Source: Candidatus Kuenenbacteria bacterium CG10_big_fil_rev_8_21_14_0_10_36_11 (GTDB taxonomy: Bacteria > Patescibacteriota > Patescibacteriia > UBA2196). Taken from it: a stretch of 38,715 nucleotides of DNA. The position numbers were made by a program, and so were the translations under genes. Where the stretch lies: contig PFBP01000039.1 in NCBI GenBank assembly GCA_002778535.1, positions 5,695 through 44,409 of the forward strand. Direction: 5' to 3'. Numbering within the stretch: position 1 is the first letter of the stretch; each line of letters starts with the position of its first letter. Below the pieces are notes generated by a model. It was not told the DNA's origin. It saw only the letters and a list, made by a program, of their open reading frames with translations, and did no database searches. Shown here in pieces: positions 3,625-38,715 of this stretch.

Positions 3625-3652
3625 TTAGGCTGGGTTTTAAAACCCAGCCTAA
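3625..3652. repeat. Palindrome family B, perfect 28-mer TTAGGCTGGGTTTTAAAACCCAGCCTAA
   Basis: Perfect palindrome 11 nt after the mrdA stop. Probably acts as a terminator hairpin. Related copies at 19207, 22879 and 17469. Confidence 0.8.
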
Positions 3653-4449: not shown

Positions 4450-4453
4450 CAAA

Positions 4454-4486
4454 CCAAAACCCCGTTTAAACGGGGTTTTGGTTTTG
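4454..4486 (+). terminator. Rho-independent terminator
   Basis: CCAAAACCCCG-tttaaa-CGGGGTTTTGG followed by TTTTGG. Confidence 0.7.
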
Positions 4487-6279: not shown

Positions 6280-8226
6280 ATGGAAAATAAAAATATGCAC
6301 TCCAACAAACCAAAAAATAGTGAGGTTGATGCCTACACTTACATAAAAGAGGAATTAGAAAAACTTGGTTGGAATGTTAAAAATCCCGCTAGATTTTTAG
6401 AAGGAGAAGTTTATAAGCAAAATGAAGTAATGGCTAACGATGAACTTAAAAAATGTCTTGGCAGAGATATGCCAGAGGCAGTTGTTAAATTAAAAGAAAA
6501 TTTTTTTTGGGTTATTGAAAGTAAAAGAAATAAAAAGGATATTAGTAAAGCGCTTGATGAGGCAAAAAATCAATATGCTAAAAAAATAAATCAAAGCAAA
6601 CAAATAAAATGCGTTTTGATTTCTGGAGTTGCTGGTAACGGTAGCGATGGTTTTGTTGTAGAGAATCAAGTTTTAAAAGATGGTTTGTGGAAAACAATTT
6701 TATTTGAAGAAAAAAAGACAAAAAATATTTTACTTTCAAAGAAACAGATCGACTTTATTTTTAATAAAGAAAAAAAAGAAATTTTGGAAAATAAAAATGA
6801 AATTCTTTATAAAAATCTTCCAGATGTTCCAGAAGAAAAATATATTGAAGTTGCGGAAGATATAAATGAACTTCTGCATAATTACGGAATTAATAAAAAC
6901 AAAAGGGCAAGATTTATTGCGGGTCTTGTCTTGGCATACTCCGCAGGGGAGATTGAAAGGCAAACAGAAAATACAATAACGCTCGTCAAAAATATAAATA
7001 ATTTAATAGAACAAAAATTAATTGAAGTTGAAAAACCAAATTTTCTTAATTTTCTAATATTGGAAGTTCCGCCAGTTAGAGAAAATCATAATAAATACAG
7101 GCAAGCAATAAAAGAAACATTAAATAAATTAGATACTCTTGATATTAAAAACGCAATGAATTCCGGCAGGGATATTTTAGGAGAGTTTTATGGAAAATTT
7201 TTGAAATATGGAAATGGAGCTAAAGAAATTGGAATTGTTTTGACCCCAAGACACATAACCAAATTTGCCGCTCGGGTTTTAAATATCAGTTCAAATGATT
7301 TTGTTTTGGACCCTGCTTGTGGTTCCTCGGGATTTTTAGTTTCTTCCTTTGATTATGTTAAAGCAAATTCAAATATAAACGAAATTGATAAATTTAAAAA
7401 TTACAATCTTTTTGGCATTGAACAAGAAGATGAAGTTGTCGCGCTGGCTCTTGTCAATATGATTTTTAGAGGGGACGGAAGGAATAATATGAGTCCTGGA
7501 AATTGTTTTTATAAAAATATTTTTAAAACGACAAAAAATGGAAATTTAACTGGCGAATTTAAACTTGAACAAGAGTATGTCCATGAAAACAAAAATCCAA
7601 TAATTACAAAAGTATTGATGAATCCGCCGTTTGCGCTTAAAAACTCAAAAGAAAAAGAAAAAGATTTTATTAATTATGCTTTATTACAAATGCAGGATAA
7701 TGGAATTTTATTTGCAATTGTGCCAATTTCTGTGATGGTTGAGGGCAGTGGCAAAATATGGAGGAAAGAATTATTAGAAAACCATACATTATTATCAGTT
7801 ATAACTTTTCCAGAAGATCTTTTTTACCCCGTAAGCGTTGGCACGGTTGGCATCTTTATTAAAAAAGGCATTCCTCATAATTTTGGAAAACAAAATGTTT
7901 ATTTTGCAAGAACAATAAGCGATGGGTTTAGAAAGAAAAAAGGGAAAAGAATTTTTAATGAAAATTTTGAAAACAAGCTTGAAGAAGTGGTGGATGAATT
8001 AAAAGCATTTCTTGTAAATCAAAACTTAAATCTTAAAGATGTGCCGGAATTAAAAAGGATATGCTTACTAGATAAATTTGATACTGGTATTGAATTGGTA
8101 CCAGAAGCGTATATTGAAAGCAAAATCCCTACCTTAAACGAAATAGAAAGCGGAGTTGAAGAAATGATAAAGGAAGCTCTTGCATTTAAAATTAAATACT
8201 CTGATAAACTTGAAGGTAAAAAATAG
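6280..8226 (+). CDS. Fused PD-(D/E)xK nuclease-like N-domain and gamma-class N6-adenine DNA methyltransferase (type IIB BcgI-A-like or HsdM-like)
   Basis: The N-terminus has GWNV...GRDMPEAVVKLKENFFWVIESKRNKKD, an HsdR_N-type PE...ExK motif. Methylase motif I (VLDPACGSSGFLV, preceded by LTPRHI) comes before motif IV (NPPF). Visibly more AT-rich than its neighbours. Confidence 0.7.
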   Translation: MENKNMHSNKPKNSEVDAYTYIKEELEKLGWNVKNPARFLEGEVYKQNEVMANDELKKCLGRDMPEAVVKLKENFFWVIESKRNKKDISKALDEAKNQYAKKINQSKQIKCVLISGVAGNGSDGFVVENQVLKDGLWKTILFEEKKTKNILLSKKQIDFIFNKEKKEILENKNEILYKNLPDVPEEKYIEVAEDINELLHNYGINKNKRARFIAGLVLAYSAGEIERQTENTITLVKNINNLIEQKLIEVEKPNFLNFLILEVPPVRENHNKYRQAIKETLNKLDTLDIKNAMNSGRDILGEFYGKFLKYGNGAKEIGIVLTPRHITKFAARVLNISSNDFVLDPACGSSGFLVSSFDYVKANSNINEIDKFKNYNLFGIEQEDEVVALALVNMIFRGDGRNNMSPGNCFYKNIFKTTKNGNLTGEFKLEQEYVHENKNPIITKVLMNPPFALKNSKEKEKDFINYALLQMQDNGILFAIVPISVMVEGSGKIWRKELLENHTLLSVITFPEDLFYPVSVGTVGIFIKKGIPHNFGKQNVYFARTISDGFRKKKGKRIFNENFENKLEEVVDELKAFLVNQNLNLKDVPELKRICLLDKFDTGIELVPEAYIESKIPTLNEIESGVEEMIKEALAFKIKYSDKLEGKK

Positions 8227-10448: not shown

Positions 10449-10631
10449 ATGCTTTGTCAAATTCAAAAAAATCTTAAAAAATGTAATTGCACTTATGAAT
10501 TCTGTCCTCGCAAAGGCCGCTGTTGTTTGTGTGTCGCTTATCATCAAAAGCGGCACGAATTGCCGGCTTGTTATTTTGACGCTAAAAAAGAAAAAACTTA
10601 TGATAGGAGTTTAGAAAATTATTTGGTTTGA
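10449..10631 (+). CDS. Small Cys-rich protein (DUF6485-like)
   Basis: [32 protein letters not shown]. The Cys pattern matches, from memory, a conserved small cytoplasmic protein family. Lies 5 nt after dedA. Confidence 0.5.
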
Positions 10632-19079: not shown

Positions 19080-19147
19080 ACAGCAATAATAAAACAGAGA
19101 ACAAAAATTTTTTGACAATTCCCTAAAAATTCGCTACATTGAGGTTG

Positions 19148-21286
19148 ATGAAGTTAATTAAAACACTTTGTTTACAGCTTTTAGACTGGGTTGGGGTTAG
19201 GCTCGGTTTTAAAACCAAGCCTAATCCTCAGTCGAAGTTTTGGTTCTCAAAAACCGCGCGCGGATTCTTTTTTTCCAGCCTGGTTTTTTTTATTTTGGCA
19301 ATTTTAATTTATCCCTCGGCCACTCATGTTTTTCGCTTTAAAAACAAAGTTTTTGGCGAAAAAATAATTGCCATTCAAAGACAAACTGGCTATCCAAAAT
19401 TAGCCAATTATTTTTTATCATCTGACCAGAATTTTGATTATCAAAAATTAGCCAGTTATGACACAGTGATTTTGCCCATTGACACGCAAATTTATAATCC
19501 GGAATTTTTTGTTTATGCGAGAGATTATAATCCTGATATTATCATTCTCGCTTATACGCCTTCGCAAAGCGTTAATGTTAATGCACTTAATGACCAAAAT
19601 AGTTTTAATTATAAATTAAACGCTCAAATCAAAGACGAATGGCTGCTTAAAGATTCTAATCATAATCTTATTTCTTCCTGGTCTGGTTTGAAAAATATCA
19701 ATGTTAATTCTGACTGGAATAATTGGCTGCCAGAATTTGTGCAGGCAGAAGTATTAAGCAATGGTTTTTGGGACGGGATTTTTTATGATATGGTTGATAA
19801 AACCATAAATTGGACAAATAACGGCGATATTGATTTGGATAATAATGGCATTAAAGATGAAGCTGATTATGCTAACAAACTTTGGCAAAATGGTTTTACT
19901 AAACTTTTGCAAAAATCGCGCGCAATTTTTGGCCAAGAAAAAATTATTGTTTTAAATGGCGCGATTGACGAGTCTTGGCTGCAATTTGTCAATGGTATAA
20001 TGTTTGAAAATTTTCCAACACCATGGCTTGGCAATAGCTGGCAAAATTCAATGAATCTTTTAAAAAAATATCAGGCCATGGTGCCGGCTGGGCAAAAAGT
20101 TTTTATTATCAATAATTTAGGATTGGACAGCAATTTTAAAAAAATCCGTTTTGATTTAATTTCCGCCTTGTTTGAAGATGTTTATTTTTCATCTGACCAA
20201 AGCGTGGAGATTCATGAAGATTTGCGCTGGTATGATGAATATGATGTTAATCTTGGCGCAGCCTTAAATAAACCGTATAATTTATTGAACACCAATGTTG
20301 TTCAATATTCAGCCAGTATTTGGCGCCGTGATTTCACTAACGGAATCACTATTTTGAATGTTACTCAAAAAGAACAGACCATAAATTTAACTGACGGAAT
20401 TTATGAAAAAATTCGCGGCCAAGAAAATCAAATTAACAATGGCCAGATAGTTAATCAAATAACTTTAGCGCCAACCGAAGGCGTGGTGCTATTGAGAAAA
20501 TTAGAGCTTTTAAAAAATGTGGCTTTTAATAACGGCGTTTTTGTTAGAATATTTAATAATAAGTCAGAAGTTAAAAGAACAGGTTTTTATTCTTATGATC
20601 CGGCCGTGGCTGGTGGCAGAGAAATGATTTTGATTGATGTTGATCATGACAATGAATTGGAAAAAATTATCGCGCATAACGGCGAGATTCGCGTGATAAA
20701 AAAAAGCGGCCTGATTATGAGTTCTTTTTATCCATATACTAAAAATTATCAAAAAGGCGCACATCTGGCTTTAGCTGATTTAAATAATGACGGACAATTG
20801 GAAATAGTGACTGGCGCTTATCAGGGCGGGGGTCCGCACATTAGAATTTTTGATTTACAAGGCCAGCTTATCAATGTTGGCTGGTTTGCTTTTGATAAAA
20901 ATAATCGCGGTGGAGTGAGTGTCGCTCTTGGCGATATTAATAATGACGGAGAGCAAGAAATTATTGCTGGCGCTGGCAAAGGTTTGGAACCGCAAGTTAA
21001 AATTTTTAGTCTAACTGGTAAATTATTAAAGACATTCTTGGCTTATGATAAAAATTTTAAAGGCGGGGTTAATGTGGCAAGCGCTGATTTGAACAATGAC
21101 AAGATAAATGAGATAATTACTGGCGCGGGCGCTTCTGGTGGCCCGCATGTCAGAATTTTTAATGGGCAGGGAGTTAATTTGGGAATGGATTTTTTTGCCT
21201 TTGATAAAAACAAAAGACAAGGCGTGCGCGTGGGTGCTGGCGATATTGATGATGACGGGCAAATAGAAATTTTGGGAATGAACTAA
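19148..21286 (+). CDS. Membrane-anchored surface protein: glycoside-hydrolase-like (GHL15-type) domain plus FG-GAP/VCBS repeats
   Basis: The C-terminal half has at least five units of DxNxDGxxEI(I/V)TGAGxGGGPH(I/V)RIF. The N-terminal part (YDTVILPID...WDGIFYDMVD) resembles a putative TIM-barrel GHL family. ATG 19148 is chosen because the promoter TTGACA-N17-TACATT (19112..19140) overlaps the track start 19139. Confidence 0.7.
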   Translation: MKLIKTLCLQLLDWVGVRLGFKTKPNPQSKFWFSKTARGFFFSSLVFFILAILIYPSATHVFRFKNKVFGEKIIAIQRQTGYPKLANYFLSSDQNFDYQKLASYDTVILPIDTQIYNPEFFVYARDYNPDIIILAYTPSQSVNVNALNDQNSFNYKLNAQIKDEWLLKDSNHNLISSWSGLKNINVNSDWNNWLPEFVQAEVLSNGFWDGIFYDMVDKTINWTNNGDIDLDNNGIKDEADYANKLWQNGFTKLLQKSRAIFGQEKIIVLNGAIDESWLQFVNGIMFENFPTPWLGNSWQNSMNLLKKYQAMVPAGQKVFIINNLGLDSNFKKIRFDLISALFEDVYFSSDQSVEIHEDLRWYDEYDVNLGAALNKPYNLLNTNVVQYSASIWRRDFTNGITILNVTQKEQTINLTDGIYEKIRGQENQINNGQIVNQITLAPTEGVVLLRKLELLKNVAFNNGVFVRIFNNKSEVKRTGFYSYDPAVAGGREMILIDVDHDNELEKIIAHNGEIRVIKKSGLIMSSFYPYTKNYQKGAHLALADLNNDGQLEIVTGAYQGGGPHIRIFDLQGQLINVGWFAFDKNNRGGVSVALGDINNDGEQEIIAGAGKGLEPQVKIFSLTGKLLKTFLAYDKNFKGGVNVASADLNNDKINEIITGAGASGGPHVRIFNGQGVNLGMDFFAFDKNKRQGVRVGAGDIDDDGQIEILGMN
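19207..19234. repeat. Palindrome family B copy (TTAGGCTCGGTTTTAAAACCAAGCCTAA), one stem mismatch
   Basis: Lies inside the predicted N-terminal tail of 19148..21286 and is translated VRLGFKTKPN. Confidence 0.75.
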
Positions 21287-21295
21287 AACTTCCCT

Positions 21296-21395
21296 TTGTC
21301 GTCCACGCGCAAGCGGGGATCTCGTGGAATTACTAAAGTGCTGGGATTCCCGCTAGAGCCTGCCCCCAACTTTGATTGGGAGCGGGAATGACAGA
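21296..21395. repeat. Compound, degenerate family A elements
   Basis: ttgtcgtccacgcgcaagcggggatctcgtggaat is followed by ggattcccgct...agcgggaatgaca, with a nested CCCAA/TTGGG hairpin. Intergenic. Confidence 0.55.
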
Positions 21396-21413
21396 TACTT
21401 AAATCTAAAAATT

Positions 21414-22178
21414 ATGAAAAAAATAACTGACTTAACCAAACAAGGACAAATAATTTCTACGGAACAAAATGTTCCTTTGACTCAGCCGTCAATTTATATC
21501 CGCACACTGAACATTATGGCTGCGCCTTTTAAAAAGCGCTATGAGCGGCATTACAAGATTTCTAAAAAACATCTTGTGATAGATTTGATTTTTGTAATTT
21601 TGATTCTGGCCTTGGCGATCTTTAATATCTATCTTTTAACGCAAAAATTTCCTTTACCCGACTTTTCTATCAGTTTTAATCAACAAGAAACCCTTGTTGA
21701 GCCAGAAAATAAATCAGAACCAGCGGTCGCGTTATCTGAAATTGCTTTGACAGCTGAAGCGCTTTATTTTAATGATGAAGGCGATCAATTGGGTTTGGGC
21801 GCTTGGCCTCCGAAGATTGGAGAGACGTCCAATTTAGTTATCAGCATTAATTTAGAAACAACTTCTGGTAATTGGGAAAATATAAAATTTCAAGCTAAAT
21901 TGCCAAAAAATATTACTTGGATTAAAAGTTCTTCCGTAAATAAAGGCGCGGCGATTGTATATGATGTTAATAAAAATACAATTTTTTGGAATATTGATTC
22001 TTTAATGTTTAATGAAAATGCTAATGCGGTTTTTAATTTAGAATTCACACCAACGGCTGATGCAGTTGGTAAAAAAATATTGCTTTTGGAAAATATTTTT
22101 GCCAACGGATTTAATAAAGAAAGTGATAAAGAATTTTCTGCTAGTGCTAAGAATTTATATTCGCTAGTCGTACAATAA
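21414..22178 (+). CDS. Single-TM anchored protein, unknown function
   Basis: ATG 21414 (MKKITDL) is preferred, because the longer track ORF begins inside the repeat. TM segment LVIDLIFVILILALAIFNIYLL, then a beta-rich ectodomain. Confidence 0.5.
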   Translation: MKKITDLTKQGQIISTEQNVPLTQPSIYIRTLNIMAAPFKKRYERHYKISKKHLVIDLIFVILILALAIFNIYLLTQKFPLPDFSISFNQQETLVEPENKSEPAVALSEIALTAEALYFNDEGDQLGLGAWPPKIGETSNLVISINLETTSGNWENIKFQAKLPKNITWIKSSSVNKGAAIVYDVNKNTIFWNIDSLMFNENANAVFNLEFTPTADAVGKKILLLENIFANGFNKESDKEFSASAKNLYSLVVQ

Positions 22179-22878: not shown

Positions 22879-22908
22879 GTTAAACTGGGTTTTAAAACCC
22901 AGTTTAAC
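22879..22908. repeat. Palindrome family B, perfect 30-mer GTTAAACTGGGTTTTAAAACCCAGTTTAAC
   Basis: Perfect palindrome between the GT2 stop and the DUF2304 start. Confidence 0.8.
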
Positions 22909-34665: not shown

Positions 34666-35616
34666 ATGCCAGACAATATTATTAAAATTCTTAATGTTAA
34701 AATAAATGCTTTGGCCAAAGCAGAGATTTTGGAGCGGATAAAAAATTTACTACTTTCAGAATCGTTTGAACAATGCCAATTAGTTACCACTAACCCGGAA
34801 TTTATTATTTCAGCGCAAAAGGACGAGGAATTTAAAAATATTATTAATAATTCATGGCTTTCAGTAGCAGATGGTTATGGAATTCGGCTGGCAGCAAAAT
34901 ATAATTCAGAAATTCAGAAATTGAGAAATTTAGAAATTAAGGGAAATAACCCAATAATTATGTCATCCTCGCGAAAGCGAGGATCCCGTGGAATTTTATG
35001 TGGTTTATTTTTTGGCCTTAAAATCGCTTGGTGGGGAATATTGAAAAAGGACGAGAAATTAGATATAATTAAAGAAACAATTACTGGCACTGATTTGATA
35101 CCTGAAATAGCTGGAATTATGAATTATGAATTAGGAATCATGAATAAAAAGGTTTTTCTCCTTGGTGGTTATGGAGATGTGCCGCGACTGGCGGCGGAAA
35201 AATTGCAATCAATTTATTCTGTAGGGGCAATTCATGGATTGTCCCCACAGGACCGTGTATATATTTCCAATAATACGCCCTTACAAATTAAATACGCACC
35301 GTTTGAGGTAAATAACATTATTGAAAAAATAAATCTTTTTCAGCCAGCGGTTTTATTTGTTGCCCTGAATCACCCGCGGGCGCAGAAATGGATTAATGAA
35401 AATTTACAAAAAATGCCGTCAGTAAAATTGGCGATTGGTGTTGGCGGCGCGTTTGATTATATTTCTGGAAAAATAAAAAGAGCCCCCAAAAATTGGCAAG
35501 GATCGTTTGAATGGCTGTATCGTCTTTTCTACCAGCCGAAAAGATGGAAAAGAATTTGGCAGGCAAGTATAGTGTTTCCATGGGGAGTGTTTAGAAGAGT
35601 TATTTATAAAAATTAA
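34666..35616 (+). CDS. tagA: WecB/TagA/CpsF-family (GT26) glycosyltransferase carrying four in-frame repeat insertions
   Basis: Family blocks VTTNPEFI, ADGYGI, ITGTDL, VFLLGG, PRAQKW, IGVGGAFDYISGKIKRAP and EWLYRL are all present in order. ATG 34666 follows GGAG and a TGgTATAAT element. Confidence 0.8.
   Translation: MPDNIIKILNVKINALAKAEILERIKNLLLSESFEQCQLVTTNPEFIISAQKDEEFKNIINNSWLSVADGYGIRLAAKYNSEIQKLRNLEIKGNNPIIMSSSRKRGSRGILCGLFFGLKIAWWGILKKDEKLDIIKETITGTDLIPEIAGIMNYELGIMNKKVFLLGGYGDVPRLAAEKLQSIYSVGAIHGLSPQDRVYISNNTPLQIKYAPFEVNNIIEKINLFQPAVLFVALNHPRAQKWINENLQKMPSVKLAIGVGGAFDYISGKIKRAPKNWQGSFEWLYRLFYQPKRWKRIWQASIVFPWGVFRRVIYKN
34903..34942. repeat. 8-nt-period array (aattcaga x5, degenerating) inside tagA
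   Basis: aattcaga aattcaga aattgaga aatttaga aattaagg, translated NSEIQKLRNLEIKG. Confidence 0.75.
34960..34994. repeat. Family A hairpin inside tagA (atGTCATCCTCGCgaaaGCGAGGATCCcgtggaat)
   Basis: Perfect stem CCTCGC/GCGAGG with the family's GTCATCC / GGATCC ends. Translated MSSSRKRGSRG. Confidence 0.8.
35114..35148. repeat. 7-nt-period array (gaattat x2, gaattag, gaatcat, gaataaa) inside tagA
   Basis: Translated IMNYELGIMNK, immediately before the conserved VFLLGG block. Confidence 0.75.
35221..35248. repeat. Palindrome family C, degenerate copy inside tagA
   Basis: GTAGGGGCAATTCATGGATTGTCCCCAC differs at 3 positions from the perfect copy at 37854. Translated VGAIHGLSP. Confidence 0.75.
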
Positions 35617-37397: not shown

Positions 37398-38715
37398 ATG
37401 TCTCATAAATCAATTAAAACCCGTTTTGCTCCGAGCCCGACCGGTGATTTGCATATTGGCGGTTTGCGCACCGCGCTTTTTGCTTATCTTTTTGCCAAAA
37501 AAAATAATGGCCAATTTTTTTTGCGCATTGAGGACACCGACCAAGATCGCTACAAAGAGGGGAGTGTGGAATCAATTTTAGAGGGCTTAAAATGGGCTGG
37601 GCTTAAATATGATAATGAAATAATTTACCAGTCAAAGCGTACGGAAGTTTATCAAAAATATGCCGCTGAATTGATTGAAAAAGGCCATGCTTATTATTGT
37701 TTTTGCACTCCAGAGGATTTAGAAAAAATGCGCACTGAACAAAGCGCTGACGGCCAAACAGCCACCCGTTATGACCGCCGCTGTTTGAAATTATCAAAAG
37801 AAGCAGTGGCAGAAAAATTAAAATCACAAATTCCTCATGTGATTCGATTAAATGTAGGGGCAATTCATGAATTGCCCCTACAACAGAATGGCGGAATCAT
37901 TTCTTTTAATGATCTGGTTCGTGGCAAAATTGAATTTAATCTTAAAGACATTGACGACCAAGTCCTTTTAAAATCCGACGGTTTTCCCACTTATCATTTA
38001 GCCAATGTGGTTGACGATCACGAAATGGAAATTACGCATGTGATCCGCGCAGAAGAATGGCTGCCTTCCACGCCCAAGCACATTATTTTGTATAATATGT
38101 TCGGCTGGCAGATTCCCAAATTCGCCCATCTGTCAATGATTTTAGCGCCGGATAAATCCAAACTTTCCAAGCGCCATGGCGCTACCTCGGTTTTAGAATT
38201 TAAAAATCTTGGCTACTTGCCCGAAGCAGTTGTGAACTACATCGCGCTTTTGGGCTGGAATCCTGGCACTGAACAGGAAATTTTTTCACTCAAAGAATTG
38301 AAACAGGCCTTTGATTTGGAAAAGGTCAACAAAGCCGGCGCGATTTTTGACATTGAAAAATTAAACTGGTTGAATGGATATTATATTCGGCAGAAAAATT
38401 TGGACGAACTAACAGAATTATGTCTGCCATATTTGAATACAGAAAACACAGAAAACAAAAAAACACAGAAAACACAATCTGAATATTTAAAAAAAGTCGT
38501 AGCTTTGGAACAAGAAAGATTAAAAAAAATAAGTGACATTGGGGAGCGCACCAAATACTTTTTCCAGCGTCCCGAGTTTGATCCGAAAATGCTGATCTGG
38601 CGGAAGTCTACCCTGGCTGATGCAAAAGAAAAATTGCAATTTTTAGCCGCTGAACTAGAAAAAGTGCCTGATGAAAACTGGACAAGAAGCGCTTTAGAAC
38701 AATTTATCAAAGGAT
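37398..38715 (+). CDS. gltX: Glutamyl-tRNA synthetase, 3' end beyond the window
   Basis: Manual translation from ATG 37398: MSHKSIKTRFAPSPTGDLHIGGLRTALFAYLFAKK...FLRIEDTDQDR. It has the HIGG motif and KLSKRHG (KMSKS-type). It is not in the ORF track because no stop is reached. Confidence 0.9.
   Translation, partial: MSHKSIKTRFAPSPTGDLHIGGLRTALFAYLFAKKNNGQFFLRIEDTDQDRYKEGSVESILEGLKWAGLKYDNEIIYQSKRTEVYQKYAAELIEKGHAYYCFCTPEDLEKMRTEQSADGQTATRYDRRCLKLSKEAVAEKLKSQIPHVIRLNVGAIHELPLQQNGGIISFNDLVRGKIEFNLKDIDDQVLLKSDGFPTYHLANVVDDHEMEITHVIRAEEWLPSTPKHIILYNMFGWQIPKFAHLSMILAPDKSKLSKRHGATSVLEFKNLGYLPEAVVNYIALLGWNPGTEQEIFSLKELKQAFDLEKVNKAGAIFDIEKLNWLNGYYIRQKNLDELTELCLPYLNTENTENKKTQKTQSEYLKKVVALEQERLKKISDIGERTKYFFQRPEFDPKMLIWRKSTLADAKEKLQFLAAELEKVPDENWTRSALEQFIKG
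37854..37881. repeat. Palindrome family C, perfect 28-mer GTAGGGGCAATTCATGAATTGCCCCTAC inside gltX
   Basis: Perfect palindrome, codon-aligned, translated VGAIHELPL. Confidence 0.9.
38439..38476. repeat. 9-nt-period array (acagaaaac) inside gltX
   Basis: acagaaaac acagaaaac aaaaaaac acagaaaac aca, translated TENTENKKTQKTQ. Confidence 0.75.

Follow-up and report, generated by a model that had tools for sequence, protein, structure and literature searches.

The closest described counterparts of the element studied here are the repetitive extragenic palindromes (REPs) and the tyrosine transposases associated with REPs (RAYTs). The element is a perfect 28-nt palindrome (the 28-mer) inside gltX, the gene for glutamate--tRNA ligase (GluRS), in a 38,715-nt stretch of Candidatus Kuenenbacteria DNA that was analyzed as a whole and is called the window. 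We consider it, with a probability of about 0.82, to be a REP of the double-foot kind that belongs with RAYT group 4, lodged as a passenger where a GluRS loop is permissive.

In the portion of the article available to us, Quentin, Siguier, Chandler & Fichant (2018, BMC Genomics 19:475; PMC6006769) equate subclass 2.4 of the TnpA_REP enzymes with RAYT group 4 of Bertels et al. 2017 (PMC5581495). According to the same portion, these enzymes have a mean length of 194 residues and carry the motifs NH[IFV]H (HuH), WQ (W) and YIxNNP (Y). The catalytic Tyr lies within YIxNNP, the sequence WQRNYYE constitutes the W motif, and a highly variable insert follows HuH. The cognate REPs come in two forms: canonical long REPs, in which three G-C pairs close the stem bottom, and double-foot REPs, whose feet are 5' GT[AG]G and 3' C[TC]AC. 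REPs also sit in frame inside the tnpA_REP gene, and the subclass occurs in abundance among Cyanobacteria and Bacteroidetes and is scattered over other phyla (PMC6006769).

The palindrome and its fetched relatives agree with this description, as far as the available portion gives it. The 28-mer has GTAG and CTAC feet and three G-C pairs at the stem bottom. Transposases found beside it at six fetched loci (L011, L017, L069, L071, L098 and L105) have the subclass motifs and a variable post-HuH segment, and in these loci taken together the palindromes flank the transposase gene and lie in frame within it. The spread is again scattered over many phyla and rich in Cyanobacteria. What departs from the description is the host, a member of the Patescibacteria (candidate phyla radiation), the lack of a RAYT on the contigs scanned, and a copy in an aminoacyl-tRNA synthetase gene. 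The available portion of PMC6006769 was not found to mention cross-phylum identity of a 28-mer or the swapping of variants at one codon. Since all the subclass 2.4 features are present and intragenic GTAG REPs have already been reported, we regard the locus as a new instance of a known phenomenon. What is less ordinary about it is modest: the host belongs to the Patescibacteria, the gene that holds the copy is essential, variants appear to have been swapped at a single codon, and the 28-mer is identical across phyla.

GTAG REPs inside open reading frames (ORFs) were catalogued by Di Nocera, De Gregorio & Rocco (2013, BMC Genomics 14:522; PMC3733652), who argued that loops and linkers can accommodate them. 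Like the 28-mer, members of this superfamily are short G-C-rich GTAG stem-loops with a RAYT link, some of them intragenic, translated and presumed neutral, and their hosts (Cyanobacteria, Chloroflexi, the PVC group and Proteobacteria) are spread like those of the 28-mer. They bear one unpaired end tag, however, their stems are mostly 6-9 bp, and the families are mostly species- or genus-specific (PMC3733652), whereas the 28-mer is tagged and paired at both ends, has a stem of 13-14 bp and is identical in many phyla. The 28-mer does not occur in the supplementary files of that study.

The biochemistry of E. coli TnpA_REP provides a further comparison. The enzyme binds GTAG and the adjoining hairpin on single-stranded DNA, cuts and rejoins nearby, and has one cleavage site that overlaps CTAC (Ton-Hoang et al. 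2012, PMC3333891; Messing et al. 2012, PMC3479197). The system proposed here would share with it, and with IS200/IS605, a Y1/HuH enzyme, a hairpin with a short guide or foot on single-stranded DNA, and the absence of target duplication. It would differ in that the E. coli enzyme needs a stem mismatch and cuts C|T, whereas the 28-mer has a perfect stem and one of its putative cuts would be G|T.

Two further groups of small repeats are comparable. The Rickettsia palindromic elements (RPEs) of Ogata and colleagues (2000) reportedly lie in frame in genes of a reduced genome, essential ones included, and are said to add a surface peptide while function is retained; RPE-1 is about 100-150 bp long and is not known outside Rickettsia. 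The Nostoc small dispersed repeats (SDRs) of Elhai and colleagues (2008, Genome Res 18:1484) are reported to be 21-27 nt long, to look mobile and to occur in heterocystous cyanobacteria; some of them form hairpins, and they insert precisely into other repeats and into genes. In-frame residence is all that the 28-mer has in common with the RPEs. It is 28 nt long, occurs in many phyla and has no sequence relationship to them, and identity with RPE-1 was rejected on length and multi-phylum distribution. RPE-4 and RPE-6, for which no transposase is known, are REPs of the CGTC type (PMC3733652).

The palindrome in gltX

Direct reading of the window shows that GTAGGGGCAATTCATGAATTGCCCCTAC is a perfect palindrome that begins 152 codons after the gltX start (37854 - 37398 = 456 = 3 x 152). 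In the gltX frame it reads GTA GGG GCA ATT CAT GAA TTG CCC CTA, or VGAIHELPL. The second frame is interrupted by TAG and the third by TGA, and the symmetry of the element leaves the other strand in the same situation. A second copy in the window, GTAGGGGCAATTCATGGATTGTCCCCAC, lies in tagA; it has three mismatches, has lost its symmetry and shares the codon frame of the gltX copy, yielding VGAIHGLSP. The initial annotation, made from the letters alone, had described a perfect codon-aligned palindrome with a single stop-free frame that both coding copies use, and the window sequence and its ORFs bear out each of these statements. Its expectation of a hairpin of 12-14 bp likewise agrees with the predicted fold, a 13-bp stem closed by a 4-nt loop. 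The minimum free energy of the RNA in a 68-nt context is -26.2 kcal/mol (z = -4.6), and folding as single-stranded DNA gives -14.1 kcal/mol (z = -6.3).

With up to three mismatches allowed, the window (about 33% G+C) contains two matches to the 28-mer, and 100 dinucleotide-preserving shuffles contain none. The arms abut, so a default inverted-repeat search misses the element; a pattern search and a script were used instead. The filled allele is identical in four independent assemblies (L124, ENA; L125, JGI; L126, NCBI GCA_002771275.1; L130, JGI) and is therefore not an assembly artefact. Full-length homologues of the window GluRS carry PF00749 and PF19269, and the best relatives are labelled Candidatus Kuenenbacteria or Patescibacteria. 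Rfam gave no match on the 28-mer at E <= 1, and neither the exact sequence nor the peptide AIHELPL turned up in a literature search. A CRISPR repeat was ruled out, as the window copies are single, 2.6 kb apart and not part of a regular array.

The GluRS loop and the tagA copy

About 105 of the 120 best GluRS homologues have a short turn (...HVIRLKVP-xG-ETEFTDLIRG...) where the window protein carries the insert. Within this set, VGAIHELPLQQNGG is found only in proteins that are 98-100% identical. Most Patescibacteria GluRS are about 10 residues shorter than the window protein at this loop, and the Thermus thermophilus enzyme (1J09/1G59) shows a 9-residue gap exactly at the insert site, in keeping with the roughly nine extra residues that had been counted in the initial annotation. 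The mapping onto a structure proposed there was carried out with an AlphaFold2 model of the full-length protein (mean predicted local distance difference test score, pLDDT, of 93). Strands 148-151 and 167-172 flank a short helix (153-158) and a loop, and the pLDDT drops to about 78-81 at the insert, compared with at least 96 on either side. The segment thus appears as a lower-confidence excursion between two strands.

Orthologous empty sites read AAA GTG CCC, AAA GTC CCC or AAA ATG CCT, which corresponds to K-V/M-P. The ortholog in L121 (80% identical) reads AAT GTA[GGGGCGTATTGCAATACGCCCCTA]CCA GAT; without the bracketed 24 nt it becomes N-V-P-D, in register with K-V-P. Removal of 24 nt from the window gltX gives N-V-Q-Q. 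By this comparison, the net gain in gltX is probably 24 nt (8 codons) within GTA|C. Its boundaries are ambiguous within the GTA|C overlap, and TAGGGG...CCCC at 37855-37878 is equally possible. The frame could not survive a 28-nt insertion, and it is the comparison with empty sites that yields the value of 24 nt. The idea that an inserted palindrome survives in its single open frame consequently stands, given that relatives lack the segment, the repeat is dispersed and five genes of other phyla use the same frame, as do copies within the RAYT-like genes; what needs refinement is 28 nt as the length of the inserted unit. When the joined flanks were searched with BLAST against the fetched loci, only filled sites were returned.

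Other GluRS relatives contain 20-45 extra residues at the same turn. In L140 and L141 these residues are encoded by other small G+C-rich palindromes, for example CCTTCTCCTTCTAAAGGAGAAGG, CTCCCCCTTTCGAAGGGGGAG and CCCCTCCTTCGAAAGGAGGGG, which makes the turn a sink for small palindromic repeats. Judged from the alignments and the predicted model, the turn is a permissive loop, and the segment after strand 148-151 can be marked as an insertion-tolerant site of GluRS. We infer that the insert is a passenger and neutral for the enzyme.

The copy in tagA is common to L122 and L124-L126, each with 2-3 mismatches, and the more distant relatives L127 and L129 lack the block of 17-19 TagA residues that holds it. 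Its decay in all carriers indicates that the hairpin is not maintained by selection once it resides in a gene. A resident copy erodes as any other coding sequence would, and this speaks against a local role of the hairpin; the tagA copy is an older, decaying passenger. We note separately that TagA proteins of the window and L122 are near-identical save for a short divergent stretch at about residues 142-158 and the C-terminal end, whereas the GluRS proteins are 87% identical, though gltX is just 1.8 kb from tagA. Such mosaic relatedness suggests recombination between lineages in the tagA-gltX region.

Table 1. Positions of the palindrome copies, their host genes and the associated GluRS segment in the window
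Feature	Position	Strand	Details
28-nt double-foot REP (probable)	37854..37881	.	foot GTAG, stem bottom GGG, centre GCAATTCATGAATTGC, CCC, foot CTAC
gltX (glutamate--tRNA ligase)	37398..38715	+	ATG 37398, truncated at window end
GluRS residues 153-166 (VGAIHELPLQQNGG), enlarged loop between two beta-strands	37854..37895	+	AlphaFold2 model and 1J09/1G59 gap
Putative net insertion, 24 nt / 8 codons (GAIHELPL)	37857..37880	.	L121 comparison and empty sites
Decayed REP copy in tagA (probable)	35221..35248	.	3 mismatches, in frame
tagA (WecG/TagA/CpsF-family glycosyltransferase)	34666..35616	+	PF03808, E 2e-33; likely start ATG 34666 (MPDNIIK)

Dispersal of the palindrome and the associated transposase

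The 22-nt core of the 28-mer was found in at least 120 stretches from a one-genome-per-species collection (GTDB), distributed over about 18 phylum-level groups. Cyanobacterial hosts include Nostoc, Chamaesiphon, Pseudanabaena, Tychonema and Tolypothrix. The remaining hosts belong to Chloroflexota, Planctomycetota, Omnitrophota, Nitrospirota, Nitrospinota, Zixibacteria, Acidobacteriota, Spirochaetota and Desulfobacterota/Deltaproteobacteria, as well as Coxiellaceae, Pedobacter, Bacteroidota/Balneolota (Balneolaceae/Gracilimonas), Ignavibacteria, Binatia and Sumerlaeota. Cultured isolates are represented, and three of the core matches listed are Patescibacteria loci.

The matches listed comprise 123 copies. 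GTA precedes the core in 109-114 of the 123 and TAC follows it in 114-119, the feet GTAG/CTAC are conserved in about 90%, and conservation vanishes right beyond GTA/TAC. This sharp end defines the repeat unit as exactly the 28-mer. The 0.94 Mb of fetched DNA also contains a superfamily of 28-nt GTAG-N20-CTAC perfect palindromes, in which changes in one arm are mirrored by compensatory changes in the other (e.g. GTAGGGGTAATTCATGAATTACCCCTAC, GTAGTGGCAATTCATGAATTGCCACTAC and GTAGGGGCGTATTGCAATACGCCCCTAC). Nearly all of the superfamily variants listed retain GGG/CCC at the stem bottom. The 28-mer is letter-perfect between phyla, while the transposases that hold internal copies share only 44-58% identity. 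Viral contigs yielded nine stretches with the 28-mer and just two RAYT-like genes, and phages are therefore not the apparent main vehicle.

Most copies are intergenic, and 16 of the 123 lie within stop-free stretches of at least 150 codons. Five of these 16 are in genes recognized by Pfam, encoding GltB, SelA, a transaldolase, a ResIII helicase and an S8 peptidase, all from other phyla and all with the copy read as (V/A)GAIHELPL. The glutamate synthase copy forms a linker between GATase_2 and the central domain, and the SelA copy is located between the N-terminal and catalytic domains. In conserved proteins or small hypothetical ORFs, the peptides VGAxxxxPL or RGxxxxAPT mark REP DNA rather than protein function, and their recognition would lead to fewer spurious families and fewer false alignment insertions. 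As a separate observation, one transaldolase-family ORF (L051, 2-1432; Omnitrophica RIFCSPLOWO2_12_FULL_44_17) contains three in-frame copies, read as VGAIHELPLP, VGAIHELPLR and AGAIHELPLQ.

All-against-all clustering of ORFs over the 120 loci listed identifies one family in six of them, the loci named above, which represent five phyla and are all palindrome-dense. These ORFs encode 180-220 residues with a match to PF01797 (Y1_Tnp, IS200-like; E 2e-5 to 2e-8). Within NCBIfam they are closest to NF047646 (REP-associated tyrosine transposase), with scores of 60-70 bits that stay below the curated cut-off of 80. A profile of the family has E. coli TnpA_REP (4ER8) as its best match in the PDB (E 4.6e-6); a single protein gave no PDB match, and 4ER8 was reached by the profile only. 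The aligned proteins (180-200 residues) display PNH[FIVLM]H, WQRNYYEH and YIxxNP, the last being YIVNNP in L017 and YIINNP in L011.

The gene and the palindrome are closely associated. In L011, palindromes at 1838 and 2444 bracket the ORF at 1855-2439, and in L071 and L098 copies occur on both sides of the gene and inside it. In L069, L071, L098 and L105, the 22-nt core lies in frame directly after the HuH motif (...VMPNHFHAIVEIVAAGAIHELPLP...). In the Zixibacteria locus L017, this position is occupied by the variant GTAGGGGCGTATTGCAATACGCCCCTAC, which is read in a different frame (RGVLQYAPT).

Of the 8000 homologues obtained in a profile search, many bear the label 'REP element-mobilizing transposase RayT'. 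In the majority of the 120 best among these 8000, the post-HuH spot reads V/R-GAIHE[LS]PL, often followed by HELPL/HESPL iterations, although the search was word-seeded and four of its six queries contained the motif, which biases it towards holders of GAIHELPL. An unbiased repeat with phmmer, started from a motif-free member and without a word index, gave 29,516 matches. In the best 149 of these, the segment between HuH and W spans 54-281 residues and typically opens with a V-G-A-x4-P-L or R-G-x4-A-P-T peptide. Examples are VGAYCNTPL, VGATGRSPL, VGAGLKPAPT, VGAQRAAPL, VGATHASPL, RGTACRAPT and GRMQYAPT, which correspond to frames 1 and 3 of GTAGGGGC-N12-GCCCCTAC. Several homologues (P0126, P0136, P0138, P0171, P0206 and others) also have post-HuH runs of HELPL/HESPI/HELPI pentapeptides, up to about 12 units long. 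These runs are 15-nt iterations of half the palindrome (CATGAATTGCCCCTA), and L134 and L138 repeat the half-unit at the DNA level.

Several other features of the dispersed copies were recorded. Fourteen of 94 full copies (about 15%) are centred exactly in a longer, copy-specific inverted repeat with at least 6 extra bp (examples are found in L010, L011, L012, L018, L025, L042, L060, L071 and L073). Bases at the first position of the two flanks can pair in 51% of copies, where about 25% would be expected. These figures suggest that the 28-mer prefers the centres of existing palindromes or hairpin loops. One IMG/VR contig (L135; 14.8 kb, 60% G+C) carries seven exact 28-mers, mostly outside long ORFs, and several of them have common flanks (cgcagagaacgc...; ...cgtaaatcctgt), which suggests a larger composite repeat. 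Nostoc copies abut another repeat, ACTTACGCAAAA(C/G)TACACGC. On the sister contig L126 (GCA_002771275.1), a member with an A+T-rich centre, GTAGGGAACAAAAATTTTTGTTCCCTAC, occupies 7030-7057, an intergenic position 18 nt after an RRM_1 gene.

Mechanism, alternatives and further repeats in the window

These results are consistent with the following mechanism. A REP whose G-C-rich stem lies between a GTAG and a CTAC foot presents the same 5'-GTAG-hairpin on both strands, and its probable mobilizer would be an enzyme of RAYT group 4 / TnpA_REP subclass 2.4. One copy would have landed in the Val-Pro/Gln codon pair of gltX (GTA|C) through RAYT-mediated, single-strand 'peel-and-paste'. A cut inside each foot is plausible and would create a 24-nt unit. 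Any insertion of 24 nt would keep the frame, and the codon phase of GTA-C.. would cause the element to be read in its only open frame. The copy would then be retained because the loop is permissive and the phase provides the sole stop-free frame. If this is correct, REPs of the RAYT type extend to Patescibacteria with their reduced genomes and are able to reside in an essential aminoacyl-tRNA synthetase gene.

Several points weigh against this interpretation. E. coli TnpA_REP neither bound nor cleaved a perfectly palindromic REP, and it cuts C|T (PMC3333891; PMC3479197). With an enzyme that rejects perfect stems, the chemistry assigned to group 4 is an extrapolation. As stated in the available parts of two articles, RAYT-driven REP transposition has never been shown in vivo (PMC6006769; PMC8266576). 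The association with the transposase has its own weaknesses, as the NF047646 scores fall short of the cut-off and no RAYT-like ORF was detected in the window or in about 110 kb of Patescibacteria contigs scanned (L004, L063, L102 and L121-L130); L140 and L141 were scanned for palindromes only, not for RAYT-like ORFs. Repetition within the host amounts to two copies in the 38.7-kb window and one variant on L126. The 24-nt/GTA|C unit is based on one ortholog comparison, and a metagenome scan for an empty allele, using the window flanks separated by a gap of 0-30 nt, gave a single match, which was filled.

Three related lineages carry different centres at the orthologous gltX codon, namely GCAATTCATGAATTGC in the window, ACAGGTCTAGACCTGT in L122 (87% identity) and GCGTATTGCAATACGC in L121 (80% identity). 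The occupants in L121 and L122 are perfect 28-nt palindromes too, and all three are members of families with further representatives. That the resident copy was replaced, for example by excision that restores GTAC and re-insertion or by conversion from other copies, appears likelier than drift. Together with the empty sites and the decaying copy, the three occupants of one codon offer a natural series for asking whether and how group-4 RAYTs move REPs.

A tentative extension, to which we give limited credence, treats the double-foot REP as an actively exchanging, frame-neutral cassette of 8 codons. It would be repeatedly and precisely excised and re-inserted at a restored GTAC, and the identity of the 28-mer would reflect strong constraint or independent horizontal spread. 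Were this true, the 28-nt length combined with the 4-nt overlap (GTA|C) would make each insertion and excision frame-preserving, and coding DNA would be a habitat in gene-dense genomes such as those of Patescibacteria. It would further imply that constraint on the REP is far stronger than that on the enzyme, or that the REP spreads horizontally on its own.

The three occupants could instead have arisen in situ, from one ancestral insertion whose arm mutations were copied by hairpin-templated (template-switch) repair into three palindromes. The carriers do form a clade, being 80-87% identical, having Asn in front of the Val in common and holding the insert at one and the same point, and mirrored double changes are common in the superfamily. 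We nevertheless judge this origin unlikely. The variant in the window matches the widespread 28-mer at every letter, that of L121 is found unchanged in the Zixibacteria RAYT gene of L017 and its peptide in many RAYT proteins, and that of L122 is nearly matched by a palindrome from another Patescibacteria genome (L004). Drift is not expected to arrive at pre-existing family members three times.

It is very unlikely that the hairpin serves a function in gltX, be it ribosome slowing, an mRNA site for an RNase or regulator, or a DNA-level signal. The persistence of a perfect palindrome at the site in three lineages despite differing sequence would fit such a role, as would the strength of the RNA hairpin. 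The element is missing, however, from most GluRS genes of the clade, the tagA copy has decayed in every carrier, and Rfam gives no match. The three variants, as members of families found elsewhere, are better explained by mobile replacement.

Equally short on prospects, and to our mind highly improbable, is a minimal MITE (a miniature transposable element with inverted repeats) of a TA-duplicating DDE transposase of the IS630/Tc1-like (mariner) type, with abutted 11-bp terminal inverted repeats (TIRs; GGGGCAATTCA/TGAATTGCCCC) inserted in GTAC and TA duplicated. Formally, G-TA-[22 nt]-TA-C and the apparent 24-nt gain fit a 22-bp element plus a 2-bp TA duplication. Yet no recurrent DDE transposase adjoins the copies in the ORF clustering of the 120 loci listed, and the family found where palindromes are dense is that of a Y1 transposase, with copies of the palindrome around and within its gene. 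The GTAG/CTAC feet are the defining recognition tag of REPs, and the variants alter the presumed TIR freely while keeping GTAG, GGG and the 28-nt length. The intact reading frame is all that speaks for native coding sequence or for an artefact of assembly or adaptors, and this reading is already refuted by identical DNA in intergenic regions of unrelated phyla and isolates, by absence from most GluRS and by the agreement of four independent assemblies.

Apart from the double-foot REP assigned above, the window contains other small repeats. A second G+C-rich palindrome family, CCCCTCCTT...AAGGAGGGG, resembles an anti-Shine-Dalgarno sequence paired with a Shine-Dalgarno sequence. One copy, TCCCCTCCTTTTCAAGGAGGGGA, is situated at 376-398 inside the ORF at 38-493. 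The same family occurs in the GluRS loop of L140 (about 10478-10500) and L141 (about 10473-10493 and 10562-10582), where it encodes peptides of the PSPSKGEG, PPFEGG and PLLRKEG types. Within tagA, the palindrome GTCATCCTCGCGAAAGCGAGGATCC(CGTGG) at 34962-34991 encodes ..MSSSRKRGSRG.., and the segment resembles a further insertion. This palindrome may resemble a repeat family present in numerous metagenomic ORFs.

Intergenic perfect hairpins, 28-34 nt in length, such as AAACCAAAACCCCGTTTAAACGGGGTTTTGGTTT, are present just past ORF ends at 4451-4484, 3625-3652 and 22879-22908. These are probably terminators, unrelated to the GTAG family. Finally, a G+C-rich patch at 21288-21387 (..CGTCCACGCGCAAGCGGGGATCTCGTGG.., ..GGGATTCCCGCTAGAGCCTGCCCCCAAC..), between the ORFs at 19139-21286 and 21372-22178, may represent another cluster of small repeats.

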